Part shown: positions 1,618-52,883 of the stretch, in pieces
Numbering within the stretch: position 1 is the stretch's first letter
How the letters are laid out: each line of letters starts with the position of its first letter
Source: Candidatus Omnitrophota bacterium
Lineage (GTDB): Bacteria > Omnitrophota > Omnitrophia > Omnitrophales > Aquincolibacteriaceae
Assembly: GCA_903884815.1 (NCBI GenBank)
Contig: CAISGE010000058.1
Location: forward strand, 6,583-70,582
DNA: 64,000 bases
Direction: 5' to 3'
Translations under genes and position numbers: made by a program
The notes under the pieces: model-generated
What the model was told of the DNA's origin: nothing
Database searches by the model: none
What the model saw: only the letters and a program-made list of their open reading frames with translations

Positions 1618-1645
1618 CCCCTTCAACCTAGGTGGTTGAAAGGGG
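1618..1645 (+). terminator. imperfect hairpin directly after stop of 1354..1617 (no U-tract)
   Basis: CCCCTTCAACC (1618-1628) pairs with GGTTGAAAGGGG (1634-1645) with a one-base bulge. No T-run follows, so intrinsic-terminator status is weak. Confidence 0.25.
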
Positions 1646-1747
1646 CGATGCTCCAGTAATTTCTGCTCCATAAATCTATAAACTATCAATAAATAGCTAT
1701 GGATAACAATACATAGCAATCGAGCGATAATAAATACTGTCACACCC

Positions 1748-1776
1748 TTGAAATAAACAATTAAATCAAGCATATT
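1748..1776 (+). promoter_or_regulatory. candidate sigma70-like promoter for giant gene 1 (TTGAAA-17bp-CATATT; TATAGT 6 bp further)
   Basis: AT-rich 260-bp intergenic region. TTGAAA at 1748-1753, 17-bp spacer, CATATT at 1771-1776. The hexamers are weak. Confidence 0.2.
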
Positions 1777-1805
1777 TATAGTAGAAATCGAGGGTTCCAA
1801 AGAAT

Positions 1806-1885
1806 GGAGGCCTATGAAGTCGGGGGCCTCAATAGGGAGGTATGAAAGTTAATTTAGAAGGCTTATGAAGTCACAAAAACTATGA
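1806..1885 (+). promoter_or_regulatory. leader with three tandem SD-ATG-AAG mini-ORFs (12, 8 and 6 codons); last stop overlaps the giant start (CTATGATG)
   Basis: The motif GGAGG-N3-ATGAAGT occurs three times, at 1806-1820, 1836-1849 (GGGAGGTATGAAAGT) and 1857-1871. uORF1 is 1814..1852 (MKSGASIGRYES). uORF2 is 1842..1868 (MKVNLEGL), and its TGA overlaps the uORF3 ATG. uORF3 is 1865..1885 (MKSQKL), and its TGA at 1883-1885 overlaps the ATGATG of the giant ORF at 1882-1887. The giant start itself has no SD. Confidence 0.35.
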
Positions 1886-4800
1886 TGAAAAAAAGTATCA
1901 CCAAAATTCAATCGCATGGAGCGGTGACAAAAGCGATCGCGCTAGCGGTGGCGTTCGTCTTTACGTGTACGAGCGTGACGTGGGCGGATCCCGCGGCCGC
2001 GTCGAAGACGTCTCTTGTTGCGCCCGCTCCCGTCGGCGACTTGGCGCTTGATCTCGGGAAGGTTTCTTTGCCGGCAGAGATGGGAAAGATCGTCGAGACC
2101 TATCGCGGCACGGGAGACAAAACCGTCGTGCTCGTTCAGGACGCGCACTCGATCCCCGACGCGCAGCGCAGCATTCGTTCCGTTATCGAATTCTTTCAGA
2201 AGAGCTACGGTGTATCGACTGTTGGACTCGAAGGCGCGGCGAGTGAACTCGACGCTCAGATCTTCAAAAGTTTTCCGGACAAGGAACGTCTCGAAAGAAC
2301 TTTTGATCAGTACGCGGCGCGTGGTGAGTTGACCGGAGGATCGGCGGCCGCGATCTTTAGCAAGGCCCCGGCAGAGTATCACGGGATCGAAGACTGGAAG
2401 CTTTACGAGCAAGGGATTGCCCTTTATCTCGCCGCGACAAAAGCCGGGGAGGCGGCCGGGCAACAGCTCGCGGAAGAGGAGATGAAACTTGAGGGCGAAA
2501 AGGCGACGGTTTATTCCAAAGAACTTCTCGAAGTAGACCGCGCCTTGAGGGATTTTGAGGCAAACAAGATTGATCTTGCCGCGCTTCTCGTCAGCCTGAA
2601 CCGTTATCTGGCACCGACCGCCGGTTCCGAGCTTGCGGTTCTCACGGCAGAGGTCGATCGCGAGGGCGTTTCGGACATCCCCGTCGAGACCGAGATCAAG
2701 GAAATCGCGAACAAAGCGGAAGCGTTTCTGAAAGCGGATCCTTCGACGGCAGGCGACTTCAAAACTCTCAACGGAAAAGTCCAAGAGTTCCGGACTGCTC
2801 AGATCACGCCGCAGGCCTTTGCACTCTATCTCAAGGAAATCGTCAAGCGTCATGGCATCAAGGTTAAAGTCTCGGCCAAGCTTGCTCGCCTTGTCCAAGA
2901 CCAGAAGCTCCTCCGCGACATCGAAGGCACGAAGCTGTTTGGTGACCTGAAACGGTACGAGGATCAAGTTAAAGCATCTCTGATGCGACCCACGGACACA
3001 CCGGGTGTGGACAGGGTTGAAGCGATGCGTGAACTTGATCGCCGGAGCAGAGGGCTGGATCTGCTGAAACGTCTTGCGAAGTTGGAACTCAGTTTTGAGG
3101 ATTGGACGATTGTAAAAAGGTCAACGGTCAACGGTCAACGGTCAACGAACACTCCCGGTGTGGAATATCGGAGTGGCAACGGCAACACACCGGGAGTGGA
3201 TAGGGTTGAACAACTGTCGATCGATCCCATTCTGCTCAGCAGGCTTGAAGAGAACATCCAGTTCTACCGCGTGGCCGAACAGCGCGACGCCGCCTTCTTC
3301 AAAAATCTCTCGTCTCTGATGCAGAAGGATTTTCGCCGTACGCCTTACGCCTTACGCCAGACGCCGCGATCAGCTTTGCTGATTGCGGGCGGCTTCCACA
3401 CCGGCGGCATGACGCGCATTTTCAAGGAGCAGGGGATCTCTTATCTCCTGATCCAGCCCAAGATCGCCCAAATGCCCACCGAGCCCCTTTACCGCGAGCA
3501 CATGCAGGGCAAAGTTTCCTGGAGCAAATATTTCGAAGTCCGTGATGGCCAAGTTAATCTGTATGACGCGTTTGTCCGCGGGGCGAGAGACCAGCTGTTA
3601 GGGACCGTTGATCTCAAGAATCCTCTTTCCGCCGTACTCCCTACTCCGTACTCCGTACGCAAAGATTGGCGCGACCAGATCCTCCGCGACCTCGCGGCCG
3701 AGGGACGGATCACGGAAGCTTCGTCTTACACCCGCTTTATCGATGAGTTGTCGTCGTCCGCCGTACACCGTACTCCGTACGCCGAAGAGTGGCTCGCGAA
3801 CATTCGCAAGTTCGGCGAAGGGCTCAAACAGCTGAAATTGGGTGGCACCCTCACCGTCGCCAACATCCAACAGCTTGTCCGTTCTATCACAATTCCCGCG
3901 ATGGCCATTGGGGCGGAACTGAGTCCTGATTCGACGTCCCTACCACTGGTTCGTCCAGAGTCAGATTCCCGGAATTTGGCGCAATCGATTTCCGGAGATT
4001 GGAAGGATGAACCGGCCAAACCCGAATCCCGCGCGCCTGATGCCATCGTCCACAATGAAGGCGAGCGACGTGAATTGCGGGAAAAAAGAAAGCGAGAGAT
4101 CCTCGATTGTGATCTCATGAAAAATCTTCAGAGCCGTTATCCGCGTGTCATGTCCTTTGTGGCGGAATTCCTGGAGCCGGACCATATTCTTAAAGAAAGG
4201 ATCATGAACGAGATCGATGGTCTTGAGGATGCGGCGGTTCTGGCGGAAGTGAATAACGGCCTTAACCAGTTCCCAGAGACGAGAGGCGTGAACGAGTATG
4301 GGCTATACAATCCGGCGACGGTGGAAACCCTCTTTCTGACCTTAACCGCGGGAATTGAAGATATACCGCAAGTACTTGCATCGATCAGCGCGGTGGCAAG
4401 CAGTATGTCGATCGAGCGCATGAAACAGTCGAAGGATGAATCTTATGTAATAAAACGGATCGAACACTTTTATCTATTTTTTCACGCATTGGAGATTCTA
4501 TCCAAAACTCAGGGGAAAGCGCTTATCGATCGCTTTGAGAGAGCGCTCGCTGAAGCCCGCGCCGAATCCCGCACGCCAAAAGGGAAGGCGGTTGTGTCTG
4601 AGACGCCGTCGGACAAGGTCAGGGTCCCGGACGAGCCGTGGAAGAATTTTCCAAATTTCAGCAAGAACCTTCAGGCCGCGCTCCGGCAGATCTTTGAAGA
4701 AATAAATAACGCTTATGGGAACAAGATCTTGCTGGCCTCGATAACACCTGAGTGCTCTATCATGAAGGGAACCGCGATGCCCTATTCCGACGCGGACGGA

Positions 4801-7800
4801 TTGATCGTTATTCATGACTTTAAAACAAGCGAGGAATTGATCGAGGCTCAAAAGGTGCTGGAAAGGAAAATGACCCGCAATTTTATCAACGTGGCAGAAA
4901 AAGGCTTTGAAATGCCCTCGTGGATCAGCGTCGAAGAGATCAAAGCAGCGCGTAAGAAGCAGGCAGGAGCGCCGGAGCCTCACTTGGGTAAACAGATCTT
5001 GAGGAAGGCATCCTGGGCTGTTCATTATTTTTCCAGGGTTTATGAGGCGAAGGATACCATAGAGGCCCTCGCTATTCCTAAATTAGACAAGCCTGGTTCC
5101 CTGCCTCGTAATCAGAACAAATTGTTATACCGAGAAGACTTGTTTCGCCTCTGGCCCTCTCTGTCACCTGATTTGAAGAAATTGGTTTGGCAGATTCACA
5201 TGGCTTTAACGCCGCACGGTAATGTGGATAACGAACGGCCCGAGATAAGCGGGACTTATGAGCAGATCAAGGAACTGGAGAAGCTGGGCCTGCTTACTAT
5301 ACGGCGAGAAACTCCTTTTGAAAGGGACAGGAAGCCCGGAGAAAAGCCTTCTCGAATTAATGCCGTAGCGACATGGGTCCAAGTAACTCTTGACCTCAAG
5401 GAAGCGAACGGACAGAAAGGACTGTACCGCTCCGAATCCCGCACGCCAAAAGGGAAGGCGGTTGTGTCTGAGACGCCGGCGGCCCGCCCGGAAGCCGGCG
5501 GGCAAACGCACGCCATTCCTCCCGCCATGGCGGCGGCGAACACCGAGGATCTTGAGAAGCCGTTGGTGTTATCCGCCTCATTTAAAGTTGGGCCGGACGC
5601 GGATGAGGAGGGCTTGAGGAACATCTCAAGACAAGTCAATCGCGATCTCTTGCCTCAAGACCTGGAGATCCCTTCCGCCGGGCTCCGGCTTGAAAGGGAC
5701 CCACAGGATTTCCTGAATCTTGTCGAAGGCGATAATGCCGAGGAATCTTTGATCGTCGGCATTTTTATCCACAATGCTGTCGATGCGATCGCAGACTTGG
5801 CGGAGGCAGAGAAGCGGCCGATCGAAGGACGTATCACCCTGACCCTAAGCCGTCAGGGCAGGAACATTCTTGTCGAGCTTTCGGATAATGGAATTGGCAT
5901 TCCCCGGACAATTTTACGCCGGTTTTCAGAGGAGGGGCCGGTCACTACCAAGCCTCCGCCGCACACCGGAAAAAGACTTGGCGGGTTCGGGGTCGGGCGA
6001 GCGCAGATCTATGGCGTGGTCGCCGAACGTAAGGGCTCTGTGGAGATCGAGACGAGAACTTCGCGGGAAGGGGCCTGGAAAAAAGTGATCGATTACGGGA
6101 CCTATAGAGCCATGGGGCGGAATGGCGTGGGGTCACGGTTGCGTCCCTCCGGGCGTCAAACGGTCGGCACGACGATCCGCTGGATCATCCCGGCGAATCG
6201 CTCCGAAACCCGCGAGGTGACGACTTCTCCGGCGGTCACAGCCGAAGAGATCGAGGCGATAGATAGAGTCTCCGTCGCGATAAGGAGTCTTTTTCACGGC
6301 GCTAATAACCCCGTCGAAATTTCCGTTGACCTCGAGCATATCAAAATTATGCTTTTTTCTCTCGCCGGTATCCAGAACAGTGGTTACATAGCGAAATTCA
6401 TGGATAAGGTCATCGCAGGCCTGAAGACTCTAGGGGAGGAGTTTCGAGACGCGTCACGGGCCGGAACTTTAACCGCCGCAAACGCCCGTCAATATGGGAA
6501 AAGGCTTAGCGATCTTCTCGAGGAGATCAAACGCCGGGAAGCGAAACTGAAGATCATGCGAACGGAGTTGACCGGTACGCCTGAACGACAGCTTGCTGTG
6601 AAGAACAAGGCGACGGAGGAGGCGATCAACAAGAAGAGAGAGATATTCTCGGACATCTTTGAAAGCTTTGATCTGGTGATTGGAAAACTTCAGAGCCGCG
6701 TCGAGATCGCGACGGGCAGCACGGCATCCTACGCCTCTCAGGACGTGGCGCGAATCCTCGACGAGATTCGCGGCCAGTTCAAGAATGTGAAAGTGGAAAA
6801 CAAGCTGTCAGCTCCGGTCATGGTTCACGCCAACCCCTGGGCTCTGCACAGCGCTTTGTGGGTCATCATTGATAACGCTGTCTCATATTCAGAAGGGGAA
6901 GATGGGCAATACAAGACGGTCCAGGTCACGTTAGCCGAAGAAAACGGCAAGGCGAGGATCGATGTCAGGGATCTCGGAGCCGGCACAAATGATTTCAAGG
7001 ACATCGACTCGGTCACCCAAAGGCCACGGCCCTTTAACCGCGATTTCTCCAAACGTCCCGGCGGGACGGGGATCGGACTTACGGAGGCGTGGATCGTTCT
7101 GGTGAAAGCCATGGGCGGCACGATCGAGGTCCATTCCGTTCCCGGTGAGGGCACGACCTTCACGATCCGGTTGCCGATCCGTTCTGAGGGCAGGAACCGG
7201 AAGACCCCTGCGGCAGGAGGGGCCGAAAGCGTGCTGAAGGTGGACGGCTTGTTCGACACGAAGAAGATCCTTGAAATGGTGAACGCGGGCCTCTTGGATC
7301 ATATCAAAGTCTTTGTTTTTGATTACGACGGAACGCTGGCGCCTGACAGGAAACCCATGTCTTCTGAAATGGTGGAGGCCCTGCTGGCCCTTCTCGCTAC
7401 CGGCAGGAAAGTTATCATTCTGACCAACGCGGATTTTATAAGATTGAAAGTGAGTTTGGACGGTAGCGTTGCTAGGAACGGCAAAACGATACAGGCGAAT
7501 CTCAGGGCGGAGGATGAGCTCTGGGTGTATGGGGAACGTGGCGGAAGCGCGCGCCGGATGCGGCCCGCCGGGTATGAAAGTTTTCCCGATCACGCGATCG
7601 CCTATGCTCCCGGCGCGGTGGAGGCTATCACGGCGGCGTTCGAGTCCATCCGGGATAATTTTAAAGCAGACCCCGCGTTCGCTGGACAAGAATTGAAGCT
7701 CCAGGTATTCAATGATGTCGCCACGAATCCGTGGTGTTTTGTCCGGTTCAAGCTGATGGGCGACAGGGAAATACCCGAGAAAAAAATGATCCAGATCGGC

Positions 7801-10800
7801 GCATCTCTCAGGAAATTCCTTAAAGACCGCGGCATCAAACTGCCCAAGGGGACTGGGCCATTTGTTTTCAAAAAGCCTTACTCTTACCCGACCGAGATCG
7901 ACGGGATACAGTACGCGTCGGGTGTCTACCATATTGCATTCCTGCCGAGCGAAAAAAGAAAGGCCTTGAGAGAAAAGATCATTCCCTTGCATTGCGACGG
8001 GAAGGTCGAAGAGATGTTCTATGCCGGCGATGGCTTCTTCAAAGGTTCGGATAAGGAGGTCGAGGGAGTGAAAGATCTGACCAAGGCGAATGTGGAGGAT
8101 CCGGACGGGACCTTGGAGATCGCCAATGCCTTTCTGGCAAGATTTAACAACGTGTCCGCTGCGGCGGATGACAGCCGCGCGGAGACGCGGGAGGCGAGGT
8201 ATGCCGCTCTTCGCGAAGAGCGGGATCTGAATGTTTGGAGCGGGTTGTTTACCGGGTACCAGGACGCGTTCGCACGGGGCGAAAAAGGGACGACCCGGCC
8301 CGTTCTCAGTCCCTACGCTTTATCGCCTATGAAACTGGCCCGGAAAGTTTTAATTGAAGAGAGGACGCGGGGTGCCTTTGCAAGCCGGCTTGATTTCATC
8401 GAGAGATTTGCGCGGATGAAATTCGATGATTCGGAAATACACGGGCTGGATCCCGGTGCTGTGGCGGAATGGGCCATTTTGCACCTTAACCAGGCGTTTT
8501 TGAACCGTTACAGCGTTCTTCAGGAAGTGGATTCAGTTTCTCTGTCCTATGAAGAGTGGAGGACGTTGCTCGAGGAAATCCGTGCCAGCGAACCCGCGCT
8601 GTTCGAGTACCTGGATTTTGAGGGATACCTAGATAGCACGGTGGCCTTCCAGCCTTACACGGGCGAGAGTAATATTGAGGCTCAATTGAAAGATCCCCGG
8701 CATCCCGAAACGGCGATCATTGTAAAAATGATCGCCATGAAGTTATTCGGGGAAAACCCGCAGATGCTGGACGGGATGCATCTGACCAAGGGGACCCATA
8801 TCAGTCTTTCTTCCGGGCTGGTGGTAAGCGAAGAGGTCGACCGAAGCGGCGAGAGCGCCGCGGAATTGCTGGATGATTTCTTTACCGTCGAAGAATGGAC
8901 AAGTCATGCCTTGATGGATCCCGATTGGGGATATTACGGTTCGGGAAAAGTTGTATTCGGAAATCACTTCAATACGGCGCCCCAAACGCTAAGGCCCTAT
9001 TTCGGGAAATTGGTCGCCGAGCAGGCTTTTAAGATGTGGCGGGGTATGCGGGATGCCGGAACCATTCACAGGGGCGAATCCTTCCATGTGAGGGAGCCGG
9101 CAGCGGGCGACGGCCAATTGATGGAGGATTTCCTGCAACATGCCTTGGAGCGCTCGGCGGCAGACGCCGACTGGAAGGAATTTTATGAGGCGCTTCTTTA
9201 TGAAGCCATCGAGCCCAATCCCGTGACCGCTCAAGGGATCAGGGCCAGAAATCACGGTCTTGAGACGTCGGGAAAAATAAGGGTCTGGCAGGAGGATGCC
9301 TTTCAATTTTTTAACCGGGCCCGGACCAAACCCGTCAAAGGGGTCGTTATATCCAATGAATTTCTGGACAATATGCCGACCCATCAGATCAGGATCTCAA
9401 GATCCGGAAAAGTCGAGGTGGGCGTCGTGATGCCGCGTATTTCCAAAAGGGCACTTTCTTACTTTGCACGCCGCGGATTTTTAAATGACCAGCCCGGCAT
9501 ACGATTCATTCCGGATAGGGACGATCCCGATTATTTCCTCGTTTCGAAGGGCACTTTCCTGGTAATGCGCAAGCAGCTTGAAAAGCCCGAGAATTCTATT
9601 TTTAAAACGCTCCTGAGGGGCGAGATGGAACTCGCGCTGACCTATGTCGATGCGGCCGGTTTTCCGGAGCTTGAAAATTACGCCAAGATCAATGAAAAAG
9701 AGATCCATGAAGCGATGGAGCGGATGGAGGGTGAGGAGGATCACCTGACCGCGATGGTTTCGTTAAAAAATGTGGAGTACCTGGGCCTTGTGAAGGACTC
9801 GCTCAGCGCTGGATACGTCTTTACTCTTGACTATGGTTTTCCCGCGGATCTGGTATTCAGTCCCGCGATGCGGCAGATGGATATCTATCATGACCCGCGT
9901 CGGGAAATCAATTATTACTCAGATGTCGGCGATTTTGATATCACCTTCAAGCAAGATCTTTCATTTGTTATGCGTTCGGCGGAAGCGCTGAGTCTAAAAA
10001 CGAAGTTTTTGGGGAACGAAGGGGCTCTGACAGCCGGAACAGGGATCGATCTGGGGTCGTATGAAGCCCGGAAAACAATGTTTCGGGCGGGTTTTCAGCG
10101 GTTGAGAGACGCGTTCGGGCAAAACTCTAAAAGCAATCTCGCACAAAGCGGGTTTGATGCTGCGGACCGAGCATCTTTGGCGAGCCTCATCCAAGCGGTC
10201 GTGGAACAATTCCCTCTGGATGAACTCAGCGAGGCCGCGGCTAAAAAACAGTCCACGCTTGCAATCCTCAGGTCCTTCGCCCGGAAAGCTTTGACCGCGT
10301 CGGCGAGTGAGCACGACGCGCAAGCGGAGTCGGAGATCCAAATGATGATGGTGCCGCTGGTTGAAGGGCTTCAAAATTACATTCACGTAACGGATGCTCA
10401 GACGGAAGCTTTTTTGAAAGCTTCTCAGCGGGATGAAATGGGCGTGCCTTTTAGTGTTTTACTGGCGGTTCATCAGGTCCCGCATACCGATGATCATTAT
10501 GAATATCCAGAAGGATTCGAAGACCTGCGGTATCTGTTGTTAGGCGAAGGAGAGGCCTCCAGGTCCACTCCGGAAGCCGGCGGAGCCAGACCCTGGAACG
10601 CCATTCTTGATAAGTTGATCAGAAACATGAAGAACTCTCACAATGACTGTGTTCTGAAGGGTCGAGAGGCTCTCATTAATAAGCTTGAAGCTGACGAGCG
10701 CGATCGCGGCGCATTTTCCCAGGCCGATTTCGCGAATCGTCTGTTGCCCATCCTTTCGGAACATGTGAGCGGTGTTGAAACGCATGAACTTTTAGGCTGG

Positions 10801-13800
10801 TTTCACCGGGCACTATTTCCGCCGGCCTCCGGAGAACGCCGCTCCGAGACGCACTCGAAGTCTGCTTCTGAGCCTGGCTCGCGAGCCGGGCACTCGACCG
10901 CGGTCACGCTTTCGGAGGTGCTTGCGGCTCCGGACGCCGCGATGAAATTCCAGATCCCGGATATTAAAAATCCCGGAAGGATGATCGAACTGGAGCGGAT
11001 TGTTCCGAAAGAGGACGAGCCGGTCGCGAAGCGCGAGGGATTACTGGCGGGTACTCGGCTCCTTTCTTTCAACGTGGCGGGTCTCAAGGATTCCATTCTG
11101 ACCCTGAAGTATTCCGAAGCGGATAACGTCGTTGAAGTTCTGTATATCAGCGTCCGGGGAGGGCAAGACCGAGGACTCGCCCAGTCGGTCTATCAATGGA
11201 TCGCGCGGACAGCGCCTCCCGGGCACAGGATCCTGATTTCCCCATTCAACGAACCGGCCCAGCTTGTCTTTTTGCGTTCCGTAGAGCTTGCGGGGATCGA
11301 GCTGGTGATCGACCGGAGGACATTGAATGATCGTGACATTATTGAAGCGCTGAATGTTCCTGCGGATCAAAATCAAATGGATTCTCTGGATTATCTCCGG
11401 TTGGTCCTGACGCATCCGCGACTCGAGCGGACTTTTGTGGAGGGTAGGACCCCAGACGGTGTGACCGGGATCATATTCAGGCAAAGACCCTCGGAAACTG
11501 TAAAAGCCGGGGAAGGAGATTGGTTGGCGCTTGGTCCTGGAGAAAGAACAGCGCAGGAACTCAGGATCAAGGTGCGGGGAATGCGGCCCGGCGGAAGCGT
11601 GGTCGAGGAAGCCACCGCCATCTTCAGACCCGCCGGCTATTTTGAGATCGTAGATCAGCGCGGGGACGAGATTCTTTCCGGCCGTTTATCCGTGGTTCCC
11701 GTCACGAAGATCTCCGGCAACCCCGTCCGCTCGGAGACGCGCTTGGATGAAATAGACGACTATGTACCTGAGCCCTTTGATGTCACGGTATCCGGGGTGG
11801 CGACGGCCGGGCAATTGCTCCATTTGCGGCCCATCAAGGGCTTGCGCCCGATCCTGAAAGCTTTCCCCCATGCCCGTGGGCGTTTGACGTTGCTTGACTC
11901 AAGCGACGGTACGGCGACCACAGCCGACGTGCGAAGTATCATGAGTATTCTTTTGATGACCGTCCAGCCGGGAGTGAAGATTCTGGTCGAAACGGGCGGG
12001 GAGAATGCTCAAGGCTTCTTTGATGCGATCATATCGTGGATCGAGGCAAATGATGAGAAGAGTCTACCGGTAATGATCGGGCAAAGTGCAGATATCCTGG
12101 CACTCTCGGGAGTCAAGTATGCTGCCCAGGATCCGGAAGAGCTTGCCGCAGTAAGCGCTGAGAAGATCCGGAAACTGGCCGGTGATTCTGCAAAAAATTC
12201 CGAAGGCGAGGTGCCTAACGCCTCGGTGGTTCTAAGATGGAAGAATCCCGTCTCCAGAAAAAAGGATATTCAGTTGGCAGTGGCCCCTTCCTGGATCGGG
12301 CATCTTCTTTCGCATCCCGATCTGGCGGCCGCGGCGGGGATGGCCATGACAGGAAAACCGGGAGGGCCGGATCTCAAATTGCACGGTTATTACCGCCTGC
12401 TCGTGGATTTTGACGGACACAAAAAGCTTGTTTCCATCACGATCCTTCCGGACGTAGGTGTGTTCGATGAATCTAAAAAACCGGGCGCGCCGCAGAAGGA
12501 AAGGGTGAAGGCCGAGAAGCAGTTCCGGGATGATGTGATCCTCCTTGCGCGTTTCTGCGCGAAGATGACGGAGGCCTATGGGCTGACGGAACGAGAAAAA
12601 GACGCGATCCAAGTGGACATTCTGGGTTTCGACGAATGGGCGGCGGCGCTCCGGGCGAAAGAAAGGGGAACCCCGATATCGGACGAAGATAGGGAAGAGG
12701 GCGGGGCGATTACGTTAAGTCAACTCAAGGCCCTGGCCGCCTGGCCGCTAGAAAATCCGTGGCATATCGAGAATTTCGGCGACCGCTCCGAAGTCCGCGC
12801 CCCTGAAGTATTACCGAGCGTGGCTTCCATTTATGAGCGTTTGCCGGCCGCCATCAATGAGCTTCTGGGTGAGGCGGGCCTCTCTGAGACGGAATTGGCC
12901 GCCGCTCGAAATATGACGGAACTCCTGACGGATATTTATAAGGATATGGGGCTTGCGGGTGAGGAGTTCTACCACAACATGGCCCACAACCTGGAAGTGA
13001 CTTATCTGAGTCTTTTGGCCGCCGCGGGGAGGCCGGAGGGCCCCAATGCCTGGGACGCCAAGATCCTTTTTGTGTCGTCCATGCTACATGATTTCCATGT
13101 GCGGAAACCCCATATGAATCCGCCGGTGGTCGAACAGACACTCCGACAACTGAAGCCTGTATTTCATAACGAACCGGCCGTGGGTCTTGAGGCGGCGGAT
13201 GTCCCTGTTTACGAAGCCTTGTTTACCACCGAACGCCAGGCTGCGCTCAAAGCGGCTCTGGCAGGAGTTCTTGGAGATGTTCCGCTGCTCGAGGCAGTGC
13301 CGGCGATCGAGGCGATCATCCGCCGATCCGACTTTGATCCCAGCCCCGTGGAATCGGAAAATATTTCGGCCCGGTTCCTTCAGGCGCTATACAAGATCCC
13401 GGCGGGTTCTCAGCAGAGGCATGTGGTGAACCTGGCCTGGCTGATGCAGATGATCGACTATGCCGGGTTCTATTGTCTTCTCGATCAGGAAGCGGTCCTT
13501 CAGAAGGTCATTCCCGGACTGGCTAACGAAAAGGGAGCCGATAAGGCCAGCGCAGAAGGAACTTATCGCTATTTTCTAAAACTCAAGCTTGCTTCCGGTG
13601 ATAATGAGGGTGATACGGCGCTTGCGATCGTCCGTCTTCTTCCCGAGGTTTTTAGGCGAAATCTTTTATCGAGTTTCGCATCGTTTGCTGCCCTGAGCAA
13701 GGCGTCTGATAGCTGGAAGGCAAAGGAGCCGGAAGTCTGTGCGAAATTGGGAGTTGAGATGTATGAAACCCGGATTCCGGAATATCGCGTTTGGGTCCGA

Positions 13801-16800
13801 TTGATCGAAGCGGAGATCCGGGAGAGTCCTCTCGAGATGTGGGAGGGCATGAAGGAAAGCTTCGTGAGTGGAATCTATGAGGGTCGTAGGGTGTTACCGG
13901 ATGACCTGGTTTCTTTTCTAAAAGCGTTCGCGGAATCCCATTTAAAACTTCTGACGTCTGCTGCGGCACCCGGCGGAGAATCCCAAGTGCCGGAATCTTC
14001 GGAAAAGGGAAACATCCTCAAAAACATCCGCGCCATCCGCGACCATCTTTGGAAATTCTTTGATTCAGGGCAATATCCTGATCCCGAAATCCATAGAACG
14101 ATCCTTAAGCTGAATGCAATCCTTCGATCAGAATCGCGCACCCCTCCCGAAGGGAAGGCGCCCGGTAAGACGGTCTGGGACCGGGTCAAGACCGTGTTTG
14201 TCTGGGCTATGTGGATCACGGGCGGAGTCCTCTGTCTCGGAATTCCCTTGGCGGGGATCATTCTCTACCACTGGGATAAGGGGCTTTCGGGAGTACCGAT
14301 GGGGTTGTATCTCGGGGGCGCCTGTCTCGCCATAGGGGATTCGTTTTTCTTTGAGAGAATCGTGGAACGGTGGCAGAAGAGGATCACGTCCTATTTCGAG
14401 ACGCGCCTGATGCACTGGATGAGGCAGCATGAGCCCTCTTTGTGGTACTTGATCCTGAGTTATAAAACAGACGACGCGAAAGATCGTCTCCTGAAGATCT
14501 ACCGGGATAGGTTTTTCCGAAAATCCTCTTTTGAGAAATACATGAATGCCGTGAACAAAGTTCTGGAGTCGATACGTGCGGTCCATCCGGATTTGTGGGT
14601 CGACGTCCTGGCCTTGCTGAACGGGGGATTGCTTTACGATGAGTATGGCCGCGGGGAAAAGGACATGGGGATTGTTCGCGATCTCGTGACGGATGACATC
14701 TTGTTTGGCGATCTTAAGCCAAAGCCTGAGGCGCCGGAGGTTGTCGAGTTTATTGCTTCGGGTCTTTCAAGGGATTTTGGGCGCATAAAATTCGGCGATG
14801 ACCCTTTCTCGAGCACCGACCATGAGAAATTCATCTCTCTCTTTAACCGTCTCCCCAAGCACTTTGGGATCAGGGTTCTGCGGTTTGGGAAAAACAAATA
14901 TGCTCTGGGGGTCAGCCTCATTGAGGCGCACGGTCCCGAATACCGTTGGCCTCTGATAAAGCAATGGGGGAAAATCTTCATTAACCGGACGGCACTCGCC
15001 ACCTCTCTCGTCGAGACGCCAAGTGTGAAGCCCACGGCCATTTCCAGGGAGAGAGAAAGATTTTCCCCTGACCGTTTGCCCGAGTCCGTAAAGTTGAAAG
15101 AAGGAAACACGAGGCTGGTCTACTTAGCGTTTCCTTATCCGGATGAAGGGAACTATCCTTCCCCGGACGCTCAAGGGCCGCTTTATCCGCGCGGTCTACG
15201 AGGGCGGCCTTCGGAGAACATTTCGGACCATATTTTCTTTGAGCTAGGGGACGGGAAAATTCTCCCGAAATATAGCACGGACGATGAGGCGCCGGCTTAT
15301 GCCGTCGTGATCGATCTCCCCGCGGACCTGGCAAAACAGGCCCTTCTGATGGAAGCCCACGATGTGCCGGCGCCGGACGCAAAAGGTCAATTAACATTCG
15401 ATCCCGCTTTCGCGAATTTGGCGTTTTTGTTTTCCGAGAAGAGCAAACCGAACATCATCGGAGTGATCGACCGCGCGACGCTTGAATTCATACCCAATGA
15501 GAGTCGCTCGGAAGCGCGTCCCGGTGTTGTTCGTGATCCTCAACAGGTTGTTGCTTATGTTAATGAAATCTTGAAGCGTTTTCCGGATTCTCTGGCTTCA
15601 GAATGGAAGGCTCGTTTAGAAGGATTCAGAACATTCAGCCCCGCTCCGGGGCGCTATGAGGGAATGGTTGCTGAGTTGAAAGAATTCACAGTAGCGCTCA
15701 ATGATAGCGTCATGAAGGCGCGCGGGTCAGCAGGCTTTCAAGCGGTTCTTCCCGTCGTGATCGATCTGGACGGTTTTGTGAGCGCGCTTCCTCGCTCTGA
15801 GATGCACAGTTCTACTTCTGGTTCCGGGAATCAGAGGTTGGATGCCTACGAGACGAAGGGCGGAAGGACCACCGTCGCGAAGAAACTTTTGAAGGTCGGG
15901 CTCTGGGCGGGGCTCCCGCCCGTGATTGCCGCGGTGATCGTTAATTTTGCGGCTCTTTTCTATCTGAAACACCACGAGGAGCGTGTTTATCCCGGGGACG
16001 GTTTTGAGCTGGGTGTTTATCCCTACGCTCAAGTTGACGGTAAGAATATTTTCTACGTTTCCAACGGGCCGCTCTACGGAGAGAGCACGAAAATAAAAGG
16101 GGAGCGTTTCAATATCGGCCTCGTCCGCTCCATGGGGAAAACAATCAATATCTACAACCCGAACGCTTCTGGCAGCGCACAGCAAAAAGCCATCTTTCTG
16201 AAAAACAAATCGGGCGAGATCCGCATTATTGCCGCGGCTGATTTTTCTGCCGAGAAATACCCCTTAGAAGATTGGCCGGATGCGTTCCAGGCAGGTCCCC
16301 TGGCCGTCATTGACGGAAAGATCAATGAGAGTATTTATTCCTGGAATGAATCTCATGACGGACGCAAGGTTTTTATCGGCGTGGACGCCACCCAAAGAAA
16401 TTTGTTCGTGCTTGAGCTCTATGGGAATGATGCCGCCGGCTATACAGCTCCCGGGACGAAAGAATTTAAGATGAAAGTCGAAAGATTTGTCCACGGTCAC
16501 GCGATCCTCGACGGCATGTGGACCGATGGCGGCACCATGGGTAAAGAACCGGGCCAAAGGAAGCCTGTCACAGTCCTTGGCGGAAAGCTCATCCCTCAAG
16601 CGGGTCCTCGCAACGAGAGACGCTTGAATCCTATTGATTCAAGCAATTCCAAACGGACATGGATCCTGGGTTCGGTCATTGCGGCTCTGGCGATTGGAAT
16701 GCTGATCGTTAAGGTCGTGGAGCCTTCTTCCTCTGAGAAAGAAGCGGAACTTCGCAGGAACGGGGAGCACAGTCAAACAATCGTGCCGGCCCCTTTGGAA

Positions 16801-19800
16801 GGCGGACCTCAGGTGACTCGGAGAGCGCCGAGACAGGTGAACGTCCCCTATGATGACGCGACTTTGCAGGAGATCAAAAAAGTCAAAAAAGACGTCGCTT
16901 CGCAGTTCGGCATGACGGTTGACGGCTATCCCAGGCCGTTCAAAAAATTTCTCGACGAATATCTGGGGAGCCGGTATCTCGCGAATCCCAAGGATCCACT
17001 CCTCCTCACGAAGGACCTCCCGACTTTGTGCGAGCATGCGTTGAAGAATCACCCGCAGCTGATATGGGAACCTGGAAATCGTCCTCTCCCGAGAGCAGGC
17101 GAGATCGTTATCGAAGAAAACATTTCAGAGTTAGAGCCCCTTCGCCTTTCGAACGGAGACATCATACAGACCGCTATCCCCACGATCTACCTCAACTACA
17201 AGGAAATCATGCCATTGGAAAATGTCCCGGAGCCCGGGGGTCCACGCTCTGAGATGCGGCGGAAGCGGGAGACTCTGACTTCCGCGTCGAATCCCGAGGA
17301 GATCGTCGCCGGAGGACGCGTTGCGTCGCGCCGGGAATTTCAAAAAGCCATTGAAGGATCAGCGCGAACAAAGATTGTAGGCCCTCAATGGATGCGCTAC
17401 CGGAAACTTGAAAATGCGGCGGACGCTTCACGGTTTTTGAAAAACGGCAAAGTTGATATCCTGGAAACGAAACAGTGGGGAGGACCCTATATTTCTTCCC
17501 CCAGCCCCGGATTCCTTCATCCTATTTTCGCGGATGTCCGCGAGAAGACCCATTTGGTGGTTGAGTTGACGCCGTCTGCTGTGGAGAAAGCGGGCTATGT
17601 GGGAGCTCCGGGGGCCTCCGGAGAATTTTTCCTGAGAGATGTGGAGCGTGCCTGGATCGTCAAGGATGAGGAGAGTGGCCGGATCCGCTATCAGGAGGTC
17701 CGGCTCGTGGGCGATAGGATGCTGGCCCGGGCCATCCGTTACTGGATACAGAACTGGAAAGAAAAAATTACGGAGATCCTGGACTCGTGGCGGAAGGTCC
17801 TTGGGGAGGATGAAATGAACGCCCTGTTTGAAAAACTCAAGGCCGAGGGGGGGATTCCTAAAGGTATCACGATCGATGCGAAAGCGGATGCGGCGGGAGG
17901 GGTGCTGATCGATATCCGTCGTAGAACCACACGGGATCGGCCTGTGACCCTGCTTCGGTTTAAACCGCAGTGGATCGCGGATCCGGAGGACAAGGATATG
18001 CAGATCCAGGTCCCCGGTCAGCGGATCACGAGGATCTTCGCGGGTGGCGGGAAGCTTTACGTGGAATATTTAAGTTCAAGGGAGCTTTTCCCGGAACGGC
18101 GCTACAGGGTCGTGGATCTTAAAGATCCTCGTGAGATGAAATCGGAAGATCTGAGCCAGGCAGAACTTGGCGCGAAATCTCCGGAGATCCTGAAAATCTT
18201 CAGGCCTTCGCGTCAGGGATTCAAGAAAATCTATTCTGAAAGTAAGAAGCACCAACTCTGGGTGGAAGCGGTCCTTGGGTTGGGTGCTGTGGGCGCCTTG
18301 TTCGACCGGTTCCTGACCCCGGAAACCGTCAACGCTGTTGTTCTGTGGGCCAAGCCGGTCTTTTATGATCTTTATAACAAAACCAGCAGGGATCCTGTCT
18401 ATTTTTGGATGGGGGCCTACCTTGCATTCGCGATCGGTGGTCTTGCGTACCACGCCGGTCTCTTTGGCGTGATTTTTGAATATATTCGTCTGCCATTTGG
18501 ATTGATGGCCATGGGGATCAGATTTGTCGCGGCAGGCGGAGCGTACCTGCTTGAGACCATCACCTATGTCACCCCAATTCCGGATAGCCTCTACGATCTC
18601 GGGTTCATGAACCGTTCTCCGGACGCGGGGGATATTGAAAAACTGAGATCGACCGAGTCAATGTCCGGTAATCCTGCGGGAATACTGGGAATTAAGACAG
18701 GTGGGGAGCGCTCCGAGACGCGCTTGCAAGCCAATCTTGCGATCTCGGATGTCGAGGCCTCCCAACTTGCTCGTGAGGTCAGCAATATCCTCGGGCAAGG
18801 AACAACCCTGCTCAGAAAAGAAACCATTAAAATCAACGATCAATCCTTTGACGTGGAAGCGACCGAGGAGATGATGCCTTTAAATAATGAGGAAATATAT
18901 AAGCAGCCTGTCTATGCAAACAGAATTACCCGGATCGGTTCTTTCGTGTTTGTGATTCCGCCGCATGGTGAGACCCGAGAGGAAATCGAGCAACAGTTTG
19001 CAAAGCTGCGCAAGAGTTCGGATCTGTTCCGGAATTATGAGGGGAATGTTCTGGTCGTGGAGGGCACAGCGTTCGATTACGCGGACGAGCACATGATTCA
19101 TCCGCAGACGCGTTTTGCGATCGCTCTTATGCTGAGTGAGGCGAAGGCGTTACGGGGCGAGGTGTTTGAAGATTACGGCACGGGTCCCGGGATTCTTTCG
19201 CGGGTGGCGTTCCGTCTGGGTGCCAGAAAAGGGATCATGTATGAAAAGGAACGCGGCGCGCTTAAACTGGCGCGAGCACATCTCAACGCTGAAGGGCTGA
19301 GGGAGGATACGGATTTTTTCATCGTGCGGCAGGATCTTTTGAGCACGCAAAACGCCGGTTCTTTATTAAAACGCCTTGGGAGGCTCTTCGGTTTCGGCCT
19401 TCAGAGGGATGCCGAACTGCGGGACGCACAAAACGAAGCCAGCATCGCGCTGATCAATATCGGACCTGAGTACGGGGAAGTGAATTATCAGGCAGACAGC
19501 CTGGCCTCAAGTCATCCCGGGGAGAGGCTTCTCATCAACACGGGCTATCTGCTCGCCGAACCCGCCGATGTGGCGATGCAGAAACAGCAGATAGAGAATG
19601 CGACCCTTTTGCTAAAGAAGGACGGTTGGAAGGTGGATCGGGTTGAGTTGCCGGAAGGCTATGCCGCATTGGTGGCTCGGCGCCAGTCTCAAAATCAGCG
19701 AAACGAAATGCGAGCGGAGAAGTATGCAGTGAAGATACCCGGAGCTGGAAACGGCCGGACCACGGAGGTCTGGTTGGATGGCGAGTTGGCTTTGGCATTG

Positions 19801-22800
19801 AGGAATATGCCGGCGGGAACGTCGGTCACTCTTTGGGGAAGTGCCGCCGTTGCGATGCTTCTGGCGCAACGGGGCCCGTTAGCGGCTCATCGATTAGGGG
19901 ATTTTATCGGAGATGTGGATCTCGTTATCCATCACGGGGATGAATCAGCGATCCGGTCTGCTTTCCTGCGTGCGGGGGAACAGGCTCAAGAGAAGCCTCT
20001 CTCCGTAAGTATCCATGAACCATCACTGCTCGATAAATTGCATAACACAATGCATTTTACAGCTTACGATTTGCCTCTTCGCATCACTGTGGGAGAAGAT
20101 CGTCAGCTTACGATCGAATTTGACACCCAGCCTGCAACGGCGACGGGGCAGGAATCTCGGGAACGTGATATTTCTGCGTATCTCGAAGATCTGCTCAATA
20201 AGAGATTAGTGACACCGTGGCCCGCTATGAGCATCGAGGATGCTATCCGGGGTGTGCGCGCGATGCTCGTGTTCGGTCTCATGCCTGATAAAGTCGAGCT
20301 CCAGAAGATAAAGGACGTATTGACGGTCGAGGAACCATGGATTGGAAAATCTGCTTTTCTCCGGGACCTTGATCGGGCGGGGAGCGACGGGTTGGCACTT
20401 TTGAAGGATCAGGGATTGCTGGATACCCGTCTCAAAGAGTGGCTTATCGGCCGCTCCCCCACAGAGTTCCCCGAGAAGCGAAACGAAATGAGGGTGGTTG
20501 AAGCAGCGCAGATCGAGAATTTACTCCGGGAAGAGAGACATCCGTTTGAGTATTACATTGAAGACCCGGTGCTGGCTTATCCGATCGACGAAGCGCCCGC
20601 CTGGATCCTCGATCATCTGAAGCTAGCGAATATGTTGGTCTTTCCGCAGACCCAAGGTGCACCTTTCACGAATCCCGCAGGCGAAAGCCTGGCCGGATTC
20701 TATGTGATGCTGAAGTTCCGCAACGGCGATATCAATCCGTATCTCGTGGGGCATGATTATTTTGAAAGGGAATATTCGGGGGAAGAAGATCCCGTGAAGC
20801 GTGAGAACTTTATCGACGACAACGGTTTGAAGACGGGCGGGCTGGATTTTGGGGAAAAAACGCCGCTTTTCCAGAAACGGCATCCCGTGAAACTATTCAA
20901 GATGTCGGAACTCCCTAATTACCCGGTTTGGGAGAACATAAGCATTCGACATCCCAATGGCGTCCTTCAGGAAAAACCGGCCGGGGAAGACGCCTATATT
21001 TTGCAAGATATGGATGGAAAGATCGAAATGACACCGGGGGACATTCCCTCCGGTTACCAGTCCCTTAAGCTGATCAATCAGGACCGGTTGGCTCTCGAGG
21101 GATTCACCGTGGGGAAACCGCTGACAGATATGGCGATCCAGGGGGTTAAATCCTTGGGTCAGGGAGGATCCTCACGGGTCTATCCCATGAAGGGAATGCC
21201 CGGATTCGTTTTGAGGCTTCCGCTCCCGGGGCTGAGTGTTTCCGAAATAAATCAGGCGGAGGAGGAACTTTTTACTCAAGCGAAATTAATGGAGCTATTC
21301 AACAAGGACGGCGGGATCGAGACGCTGTCGGCTTTGGATAAAATGGGAACAATGGACAATGGGACACTCTACATGGTGCGTTCGGGGCCATGGAAGGCGT
21401 ATACGATGGAGAGTGGCGAAGCGGAGAAGATCCCTCCCGTTGAGAAAGTCCGGATCCTCAGGCTGATGCTGGAAACGCTTGCGTGGGTCCACCGCCATGG
21501 TTTCCATGGAGATATCAAACCTGAAAATATCCTTGTCGAGGAAGGGACCCTGGAGCCCAAGTTGAACGATTTTTCGGCCGTTCGGGCTACGAATATCCAT
21601 GACCCGGGGAGCTATCGCATTGTCGGAGAAACCGCCGGCTATTCGCCTACGGATATTTTGGGGCCTGTTTATGAGGACTTGCCGATAAATCCCGCCTGGG
21701 ATATTCACGCATTTGCGCGGACGATCCTGGCGATATTGAGTGCCCCCCCGGAGGCCGACACGGGATATAGCCGTATTGAAAATGTGATCTGGCGTATGAA
21801 AAAGTACGGCAATTACAAACTTTTCGAAGCGGATCTCCTGGGAGATCTGCTCGGTGAGACACTGCCCGGGATCGGATTAAGCCCCGTGTGGGATCAATTT
21901 CTCATGTCGACGATCGCATGGAGGTTTGTTTCCTCCGCAAGGTCGCAAAGGCAAACCGTTCCCAAGGCTCAATGGCAGGGGGTTCTGAATCAGGCATTGT
22001 CGATCAGGATGCGCCCCGAGGATTATCAGCCCTACCGGGCGAGGCTGGATGGGGAGACTCAGGCGCTTGTCGACAAACTACTGCGCGGTGAAACCATGAC
22101 CGACAGGGAGATCGTTCATATAAACCGCAGGGTTTTAGAGCTCTCTTCTCCGGACCAGATCGCGAAGGCCCCAAAACCAGAGGTGGACGGGAATGTGGAT
22201 CTCTTCCTAGAAAAGATCCCGCAGGCCCAGAAGGAGGCCCTGAGGCCGCTGATCCAATTGGCGCTGACGCGGGGTTACGAGGTTCTTCCCGAAGGCTACT
22301 CCGCGCAGAAATTCCTTGAGGAATTTGATGCGGCGACAAAGGTGCTTTTCCCGGATGGAGCGCCCTTCGTCCACGGGCTCAGGCAACGCGCCGAGATCCG
22401 TTCCCCCGAACAGATCCCGGAATTAGTGCGGGGCCAGGCCCCAACAACTTCTGGAATTAAAGAGGGTGAAAACCGCGCCGAAACGCGGACGAGCTCTGTA
22501 ATGTCGAGGCGCAATTTTTTGAAAGGGGCAGTAGTAGCCGCTTCTGTAGCTGCTCTTCCAACCCCAGGTTTGGCTTTTAGTAGTTCTCCGGCTCAAACCA
22601 CGGCCAAAGTTATAGTGCCTATTTTGCCGGAGAACGGATTTTACGATGATGAAGGGTTTTCCTTTGTTGATATTTATGATATGGATCGAAGTGCCGATTC
22701 TGCCCAGGATCGTGAGAAACTGTACGCTCCGCGACTTTATGCCTATAAAAATGGGGAAGCCTATCGAGTTCTTGAGAGTGGCGAAAGAGTCCGGTCGGAT

Positions 22801-52805: not shown

Positions 52806-52883
52806 GTCCCCATCGTCTAGGTTGGTCTAGGACACCAGGTTTTCATCCTGGTAACAGGGGTTCAAATCCCCTTGGGGACGCCA
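52806..52883 (+). tRNA. tRNA-Glu (anticodon UUC), CCA encoded
   Basis: Cloverleaf read by eye: acceptor GTCCCCA/TGGGGAC, anticodon stem CCAGG/CCTGG with loop TTTTCAT (anticodon TTC), T-arm AGGGG-TTCAAAT-CCCCT, discriminator G, CCA. Nearly collinear with E. coli tRNA-Glu. Confidence 0.9.

Follow-up and report, generated by a model that had tools for sequence, protein, structure and literature searches.

The 64-kb window analysed here, by which we mean the whole stretch taken from contig CAISGE010000058.1 of a Candidatus Omnitrophota bacterium, contains two adjacent giant genes, the first of which (gene 1) carries four short tandem arrays of heptanucleotide units in its 5′ region (T1 to T4; Table 1). 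At one of them, T1, a naturally occurring allele lacks exactly one unit and encodes a truncated product, so that T1 is a candidate on/off site of a 29-kb open reading frame (ORF). Giant genes of the Omnitrophota are among the longest known and are thought to be involved in attachment or predation, and two papers on them are silent about heptanucleotides, tandem repeats, frameshifts and phase variation.

Heptanucleotide Tracts in Two Giant Genes

T1 to T4 lie 1.2–1.9 kb into ORF 1 and were recovered by Tandem Repeats Finder and a period scan within 1–5 nt of the places given by an earlier note that had been made from the sequence alone. T1 is the only perfect 4-unit array among them. Tandem Repeats Finder described T2 as a CGCCKTA-type array of 3.6 units (94 %, with a perfect core at 3339–3358), T3 as CCGTACT x3.9 (3632–3658, 90 %) and T4 as CCGTACA x3.4 (3761–3784, 88 %). 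The cluster in gene 1 is real, and a second cluster at the start of gene 2 had been overlooked, which Tandem Repeats Finder placed at 31470–31502, 31519–31546, 31807–31828 and 31880–31908. A fuzzy period scan of the whole window (p = 4–12; minimum of 15 matches in 18 positions at lag p) returned seven segments at p = 7 and zero at every other period. Each giant ORF has its share of these seven within the first ~0.7–2 kb, and none falls in the ~46 kb that make up the rest of the two ORFs. The period-7 tracts of the window are far beyond chance and specific to this period.

The CCGTACG-type unit is read in T2 in a codon phase different from that in T3 and T4, and it occurs in both orientations in gene 2. 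Because the reading phase of one unit type varies and its reverse complement also occurs, the pattern belongs to the DNA level, in agreement with the earlier note. Three other origins were considered and rejected: a protein-level peptide repeat, since unit phases and orientations differ and relatives put other units at the equivalent loops; a programmed −1 ribosomal frameshift site, since GGTCAAC and CCGTACG are not slippery and the uninterrupted (ON) allele is one continuous ORF; and the target of a diversity-generating retroelement, for which there is no adenine-specific pattern and the position is wrong.

The N-terminal ~620 residues of gene 1 and gene 2 are paralogous (24 % identity, E 8e-26), with the tracts falling on alignment gaps. 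All similarity matches to residues 1–673 of gene 1 came from Candidatus Omnitrophota metagenome-assembled genomes. In a 14-sequence alignment (A1) of this domain the QDAH and EG motifs are invariant and GGFH is near-invariant, with variable loops in between, and T1 to T4 occupy four of these gap-rich loops. An AlphaFold (AF2) model of the gene 1 domain (m4e64186afc87) has a mean predicted local distance difference test score (pLDDT) of 78.9, and its internal segments with pLDDT below 50, namely 419–442, 578–587 and 626–633, are the peptides of the T1 region, T3 and T4, respectively. The T2 peptide lies between helix 456–486 and strand 496–503. Pfam contains no family for the N-terminal region of either giant gene, and neither a sequence-profile search of the PDB nor Foldseek gave a significant match for the domain; entries of the erythromycin-esterase-like fold (EreC, BcR135, HopBA1) appeared far below significance with E >1. 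Paralogues of the domain are numerous per genome, with at least 10 in one assembly.

Table 1. Giant ORFs, heptamer tracts and hairpins of the window, numbered from its first nucleotide.
Feature	Coordinates	Strand	Description	Basis
Giant ORF 1 (gene 1)	1882..30921	+	9,679 aa; the gene that the tracts would be able to switch off	ORF list
N-terminal domain of gene 1	1882..3800	+	conserved, ~640 aa, signal-peptide-like N-terminus	alignment, model
T1	3119..3147	+	perfect (GGTCAAC)x4.1, 29-nt period-7 run, polymorphic	Tandem Repeats Finder, 100 %
Hairpin adjoining T1	3142..3210	+	perfect 13-bp inverted repeat 3150–3162 / 3186–3198	repeat search, RNA fold
TGATG	3317..3321	+	stop TGA of the x3 frame (3317–3319) overlapping the original-frame ATG (Met480)	sequence, L001 gene calls
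T2	3334..3366	+	CGCCGTA/CGCCTTA-type, ~4 units, interrupted, just before the GGFH strand	Tandem Repeats Finder, scan
T3	3630..3661	+	CCGTACT-type, ~4 units, interrupted, disordered loop	Tandem Repeats Finder, scan, model
T4	3755..3786	+	CCGTACA/CCGTACT-type, ~3.4 units, peptide AVHRTPYA, disordered loop	Tandem Repeats Finder, scan, model
Giant ORF 2 (gene 2)	31249..52464	+	7,071 aa; own heptamer cluster in the paralogous N-terminal domain	
T5	31470..31507	+	(ACAGACC)x4.7, perfect over 31479–31502; insertion relative to gene 1, loop after 'VETS'	Tandem Repeats Finder, scan, alignment
T6	31519..31546	+	GCGGACC/GTGGACC-type, ~4 units	Tandem Repeats Finder, scan
T7	31799..31831	+	GTACGGN array, reverse-complement orientation of the CCGTACG family	Tandem Repeats Finder, repeat search, scan
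Strong gene 2 hairpin	31832..31910	+	3′ arm is T8	repeat search, fold
T8	31880..31908	+	CCGTACG-type, 3′ arm of hairpin 31832..31910	Tandem Repeats Finder, repeat search
Second gene 2 hairpin	32857..32932	+	GTACG / CCTTCCGC arms, loop just before GGFH; −33.2 kcal/mol, z = −2.68	repeat search

A One-Unit Allele at T1

The 5′ region of gene 1 was compared in five assemblies, namely the window and four further loci (L001 to L004), of which L002 to L004 were found via the neighbouring 288-aa gene. L001 (ENA ERZ27313066) aligns to positions 1619–13319 of the window (11.7 kb) with 99.9 % identity, three single-nucleotide polymorphisms (SNPs) and one indel, and this sole indel is exactly one missing GGTCAAC unit, leaving T1 x3 instead of x4. 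L002 to L004 have T1 x4, are mutually identical and differ from the window at two sites; the L001 sequence equals theirs plus one private SNP and the 7-nt deletion. Repeat-number heterogeneity in population data, which the earlier note had proposed to look for, is thus present at T1.

The product computed for the x3 allele has 476 aa, made up of 412 native residues and 64 out-of-frame ones. The best database match of gene 1, a deposited protein of likewise 476 aa (P0001), follows gene 1 through ...KRSTVNGQR before diverging and is the computed x3 product except for one I/L change caused by a SNP. Gain of a unit at T1 would give 442 aa, and the computed one-unit products are 497 or 556 aa for T2, 648 or 623 aa for T3 and, in gene 2, 129 aa (−1) and 99 aa (+1) for T5. 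That each tract holds a number of units preserving the frame, a point also made in the earlier note, is uninformative, being true of any tract inside an open ORF. In L001 the gene caller began the downstream ORF (>5,331 aa) at the Met480 ATG, which overlaps the stop codon of the x3 frame, and no further defects were present over the 10 kb retrieved. Translation might re-initiate at this ATG.

When JGI metagenome contigs were scanned for the two T1 flanks, allowing any of several gap lengths between them, 0 matches resulted, and the lineage of the window is therefore not in that collection. A search with the N-terminus of gene 2 gave no close or truncated relatives in which T5 to T8 could be compared. 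In L003 (ENA ERZ27313089 k141_216006, a 56.6-kb contig) the gene 1 product has 9,567 aa instead of the 9,679 aa in the window; both products share an identical start, and an additional difference must lie past the compared 11 kb.

A Second Giant Gene with One-Unit Alleles

Searching with a tract-rich relative (L076) led to a protein cluster of 258, 280, 460 and 794 aa with a common N-terminus and thereby to another giant gene, gene X, which is linked to the window by shared samples. Gene X is a paralogue of gene 1 with 34 % identity at the N-terminus, and its tract B lies in the loop corresponding to T1. The gene was recovered from three samples, ERZ27245625 (L168), ERZ27313066 (L169) and ERZ18626558 (L170), the first two of which also contain the population of the window. 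Over 6.3–8.8 kb the three loci show zero SNPs and differ solely at two perfect heptamer tracts, each time by a 7-nt indel. Tract A (AGTACGG) is present as x4.3 in L168 and L170 and as x3.3 in L169, resulting in a 280-aa product, while tract B (GTACGGA) is present as x3.9 in L169 and L170 and as x2.9 in L168, resulting in a 460-aa product. The frame of L170 is open across both tracts, its first ORF comprising at least 794 aa. In the truncated (OFF) alleles, called ORFs of 9,158 and 9,302 aa follow, whose first ~4 kb, the part retrieved, are open. The deposited proteins P0021 and P0023 are, like P0001, the truncated products as computed, with P0024 representing the ON form.

Altogether, three independent one-unit losses were found across gene 1 and gene X, all affecting perfect 4-unit arrays on backgrounds nearly devoid of point differences, a combination that, judged from the sequences, reads as a signature of repeat hypermutability. 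The resulting states vary by sample: in ERZ27313066 gene 1 is OFF and gene X is OFF at tract A, in ERZ27245625 gene 1 is ON and gene X is OFF at tract B, and in the BUCK21 samples (ERZ18624736, ERZ18626558) both genes are ON. Gene X has the unit families GTACGGA/CCGTACA, TCAACGA and CAGACCA in common with the window, and the unit family of T2 occurs at the equivalent loop of gene X and of a further relative (L079). An intergenic array, CGTTGAG x3.7, lies at 2307–2332 of L168 between murJ-like and uvrC-like genes, and its unit, read on the opposite strand, nearly matches the T1 unit family.

Heptamer Arrays across Related Loci

Domain-alignment scans of genome and metagenome collections yielded 160 loci, 132 of them non-redundant and together covering 1.25 Mb; every named record among the 160 belongs to the Omnitrophota. 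The 132 loci contain 158 arrays of period 7 and 84 of its period-14 harmonic, with at most 6 for any other period between 4 and 15. Period-7 arrays reach 0.50 per kb inside the N-terminal domain and 0.035 per kb outside it, a 14-fold enrichment that holds against the following kilobases of the giant ORFs as well as against upstream DNA, and 123 of the 158 tracts are inside the coding N-terminal domain. They cluster at query residues ~60–110, 210–320, 420–510 and 540–630, i.e. in the loops of the window's T1 to T4, the T3-equivalent loop being the commonest site across the family. There are 151 canonical unit types, some of which recur in several genomes. Gene 1 is thus not alone in carrying such tracts; they form part of a lineage-wide heptamer class, half of it in inverted pairs and some of it intergenic, and a mutational process specific to 7 nt may therefore account for them no less than selection for switching.

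Near-identical pairs among the 160 loci were mostly one contig deposited twice, and the few real pairs were without tract differences. One domain copy (L061, 7605–7660) is frameshifted at a C12 run in the T3-equivalent loop, giving a 562-aa product (P0009); the run is followed by the degenerate heptamers AATTCAC AATCCAC GCCCCAC GACCCAC and could be either a homopolymer switch or a sequencing error. Two apparent alleles were dismissed. The frame break of L046 coincides with an NN scaffold gap, and P0014 (402 aa) ends at an unrelated disruption beside a contig end and not at a heptamer tract. Downstream of the conserved 'QEFQTS', this copy (L165 7130–7281) changes to a sequence containing 11-nt direct repeats (AAAAGTGGACA), and 72 nt separate its stop codon from the contig end. 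The site may be the edge of an insertion element and not a switch made of repeats. Single-linkage grouping of the units at one mismatch was discarded, as it chained 149 of 165 tracts into one group. In another loop (P0012/L084, columns 354–397 of A1) the 10-residue tandem peptide SRAGLNKQDD is inserted two to three times, so that the domain evidently accommodates repeats of a different kind as well.

Hairpins and Inverted Arrays

Several tracts form part of predicted hairpins. In the one adjoining T1, pairing between the last T1 unit and GTTGA closes the inverted repeat, and the fold has −33.2 kcal/mol (z = −2.46); segment 3185–3210 of this hairpin is a 92 % copy of 2996–3021. Three copies of ACAC(A/T)CC(G/C)GG(T/A)GTGGA, encoding TPGV(D/E), are found at 2992–3021, 3145–3164 and 3181–3210, two of them flanking the spacer after T1 and one being the inverted arm, which suggests that the T1 loop grew through local direct and inverted duplication. 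In gene 2, T7 and T8 constitute a 27-nt inverted pair, and the segment 31795–31912 folds with −51.1 kcal/mol (z = −3.41). Across the related loci 46 % of the tracts have a reverse-complement partner within 160 nt, compared to 4 % in the control. The inverted pairs of relatives form stems of ~18–25 bp with up to 22 contiguous pairs and are translated in frame; the T3-equivalent loop of L073, for example, carries a full CCGTACG / GTACGGC hairpin.

Gene 2 furthermore contains a distinct, non-heptamer hairpin insertion in frame at 33288–33353 (+), with the terminal inverted repeats GTCATCCTGAG...CTCAGAATGAC and the translation VILSGAKDLSRDSSAGEPQNDE. Peptides resembling VILSGAKDLSRDSSAGEPQNDE (AVILSPKGEESQKRDPS..PQDD and CHSERSEESRDPS) are present in loops of the relatives L074, L076 and P0007.

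Interpretation and Alternatives

We consider it fairly probable that arrays of the T1 to T4 type act as slippage on/off sites in giant genes and are part of the lineage-wide heptamer class. Short heptamer arrays, often accompanied by an inverted copy, pervade some Omnitrophota lineages, and T1 to T4 as members of this class occupy four insertion-tolerant, mostly disordered loops of a giant protein, presumably secreted or membrane-bound, where they are read in frame as loop peptides. Slipped-strand mispairing would then add or remove one 7-nt unit and shift the frame, because 7 is not a multiple of 3. In the T1 x3 allele translation would stop at residue 476 and leave ~27 kb of the gene untranslated, possibly accompanied by polarity, i.e. 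reduced transcription of this remainder. T1 is accordingly read as a heritable on/off site that would be revertible in principle, because the rest of the gene is without disabling mutation over the retrieved 10 kb. The sister tracts of gene X would act likewise and produce different on/off combinations by sample, whereas T2 to T4 would represent stabilised or decaying copies without present switching. Such switching may benefit the cell, which could for instance spare the expense of a 30-kb gene or alter its surface, instead of being tolerated as a side effect of the process that generates heptamers. Insertion tolerance alone does not readily account for the 14-fold concentration in the first 2 kb, which would be expected if early truncation is useful.

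Several observations weigh against such a role. T2 to T4 are invariant in all five assemblies, and of the gene 1 tracts for which the earlier note proposed a phase-variation switch only T1 varies. Nine predicted products (T1, T2, T3 and T5 with −1 or +1 unit, and T1 with −2) were absent from an exact look-up in ~15 billion proteins, in which P0001 alone was present. Neither +1 alleles nor reversals were seen among the compared assemblies, and the three −1 alleles were each assembled by MEGAHIT (k141) and are known at the assembly level. Perfect arrays are very short, reaching 4 units at most in the 1.25 Mb of related loci, and none of the 132 diverse loci is frameshifted at a heptamer tract. 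The presence of arrays depends on the lineage, one genome with 10 paralogues having none and others 0.6–0.7 per kb, and arrays also occur between genes and as hairpins, as would fit a mutational origin without selection for switching. A purely mutational origin is kept plausible by how short and decayed most arrays are, by their restriction to certain lineages and by the fact that relatives have no OFF alleles.

This thought can be taken further, in that a lineage process, e.g. polymerase slippage in a 7-nt register combined with template switching, or the spread of small hairpin elements, would make 7-nt arrays and inverted copies, of which only in-frame ones persist, at loops that tolerate them, so that the observed losses would be ordinary deleterious or neutral knock-outs of dispensable giant genes instead of a maintained switch. 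The many unit types, the excess of inverted pairs, the intergenic arrays, the stop at 4 perfect units, the decay of most arrays and their variable presence by genome all fit this explanation, as does the lack of OFF alleles at heptamer tracts in relatives. Heptameric repeats of bacteria are also over-represented without a described switching role (PMC4692102), and the cyanobacterial short tandemly repeated repetitive (STRR) sequences with their 7 bp repeats form hairpins and have no known function (PMC2670836). Such a by-product would, however, hardly lead to the 14-fold enrichment in the first ~2 kb, with no arrays in the other ~46 kb of the window's giant ORFs, or to OFF alleles at consensus frequency in samples in which the remaining gene is intact, and we therefore regard it as doubtful. 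Quite improbable in our view is a function at the level of nucleic-acid structure, in which hairpins of inverted arrays, either in the DNA or in the 5′ part of a 20–30-kb mRNA, would make the transcript more stable, cause ribosomes to pause during secretion targeting or bind a repeat-recognising protein, unit changes being incidental. STRR hairpins have been suggested to affect transcript stability (PMC2670836), and the strong hairpins beside T1 and in gene 2 (z = −2.5, −3.4 and −2.7), the ~18–25-bp stems of relatives and the inverted partners of about half of the tracts agree with a structural function. T2, T3 and T4, however, have no inverted partner and fold no better than shuffled sequence (z from −0.55 to +1.7), 151 canonical units make a single binding protein unlikely, an Rfam scan of the whole window matched a tRNA alone and nothing at the tracts or hairpins, and the 7-nt period is left unexplained.

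The unit-number differences might also be assembly artefacts and the tracts stable, translated low-complexity loops, as could be suspected from the common MEGAHIT origin of the three −1 alleles and from the occurrence of deletions only. The tracts are, however, only 22–31 nt long and thus below most assembler k-mer sizes, hence they should have been spanned by reads; the T1 x3 contig also has a private SNP and is therefore a distinct haplotype, and the other 4-unit tracts are intact in each assembly, the affected tract differing by sample. We judge this explanation very improbable. An extension of slippage on/off switching would be a combinatorial system across giant paralogues, in which minimal 4-unit arrays, drawn from a limited set of units and often built as hairpins, are preferentially installed and kept in each 5′ domain and each cell lineage expresses a different subset of the giant surface proteins as a form of bet-hedging over very costly genes, possibly through a dedicated 7-nt-repeat mechanism shared with the cyanobacterial STRR sequences. 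In this far-reaching form the idea appears unlikely.

Comparison with Known Repeat Systems

Classical contingency families include the opa genes of Neisseria with their CTCTT coding repeats and the tetranucleotide loci of Haemophilus. Like these, the Omnitrophota giant genes would form a surface-directed family of several paralogues with a non-triplet coding repeat near each 5′ end and independent on/off states, as in gene 1 and gene X. The repeat numbers are, however, far lower, and most members in other genomes have decayed tracts or none.

The closest heptanucleotide parallel is neuO, the O-acetyltransferase of phage CUS-3 in E. coli K1, which undergoes phase variation by 5′-AAGACTC-3′ repeats in its 5′ coding region, with 3–53 repeats (20 being the commonest) and 66 % of genomes OFF (PMC13001214). 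In both cases a translated 7-nt unit lies within the 5′ coding region, slippage by one unit toggles or would toggle the frame, and ON and OFF alleles coexist among near-identical strains. In contrast to the one long array of the N-terminal repeat region in neuO, the arrays described here are several per gene, mostly interrupted and of 3–4 units each, and are placed in internal loops of a folded domain in 21–29-kb genes of an uncultured phylum. At T1 and in gene X we find a non-triplet 5′ repeat, a unit-number difference between near-identical genomes, and both full-length and truncated states in nature; the long uninterrupted array of a contingency locus is missing, with 4 perfect units as the maximum in the window and in 1.25 Mb of relatives. 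The term 'classic' contingency layout, as used in the earlier note, is consequently too strong.

Cyanobacterial STRR sequences of Nostoc, Anabaena and Calothrix are 'usually 7 bp repeats' and form hairpins of unknown function (PMC2670836), and the heptameric repeats of bacteria, including GGGNATC in Xanthomonas, are over-represented, intergenic, preferably of four units and occasionally found as inverted pairs (PMC4692102). The Omnitrophota arrays resemble both in that period 7 alone is over-represented, in short arrays of ~4 units, in several unit families per genome, and in inverted pairs able to form hairpins. They differ by lying in ORFs, in frame and 14-fold concentrated in one domain with a frameshifting consequence, whereas the known repeats lie mostly between genes and are depleted from coding DNA, and by not being based on G-tracts, as opposed to the G-rich, quadruplex-forming repeats of Xanthomonas and Nostoc. 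Over-representation of period 7 and hairpin ability would therefore place them in the STRR class, from whose mainly intergenic location they depart. Hairpin insertions of ~60–120 nt at variable loops and in frame are also reminiscent of repetitive extragenic palindromic (REP) or miniature inverted-repeat transposable element (MITE)-like elements, and inverted arms are common. Heptamer arrays differ from these by their internal 7-nt periodicity, their many unit types (151 canonical units) and the common lone arms such as T2 to T4, and neither defined termini nor duplications of a target site were recognised.

Phase variation by heptanucleotides has been described before, and so have heptameric repeats. 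As far as our searches show, the two have not been described together as here, with several minimal arrays, many of them paired as hairpins, concentrated in one domain of a multi-paralogue giant-gene family and with on/off alleles occurring naturally. If the slippage on/off interpretation is true, giant genes that look 'fragmented' or 'truncated' in metagenome-assembled genomes may represent biological OFF states instead of errors, populations may be mosaics expressing different giant proteins, and the role of heptameric (STRR-type) repeats, together with the question why the unit is 7, would gain a system with a readable consequence. On the practical side, gene callers split giant ORFs at such tracts, as exemplified by P0001, P0021 and P0023.

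Further Features of the Giant Genes

Besides the tracts, both giant genes contain a recurring motif, R-[S/A/T]-E-[T/M/A/V/S]-R (RSETR, RAETR, RSEMR etc.), with 14 copies in gene 1 and 7 in gene 2 compared to ~0.4 expected from shuffled sequence. The copies are spaced from a few hundred to about 1,200 residues and could mark where a polyprotein is processed or where its modules meet. Just downstream of gene 2, a tRNA gene at 52806–52880 (+) overlaps the 5′ end of the minus-strand ORF 52843–54360, and because of this overlap the listed start of the ORF is probably too far upstream.

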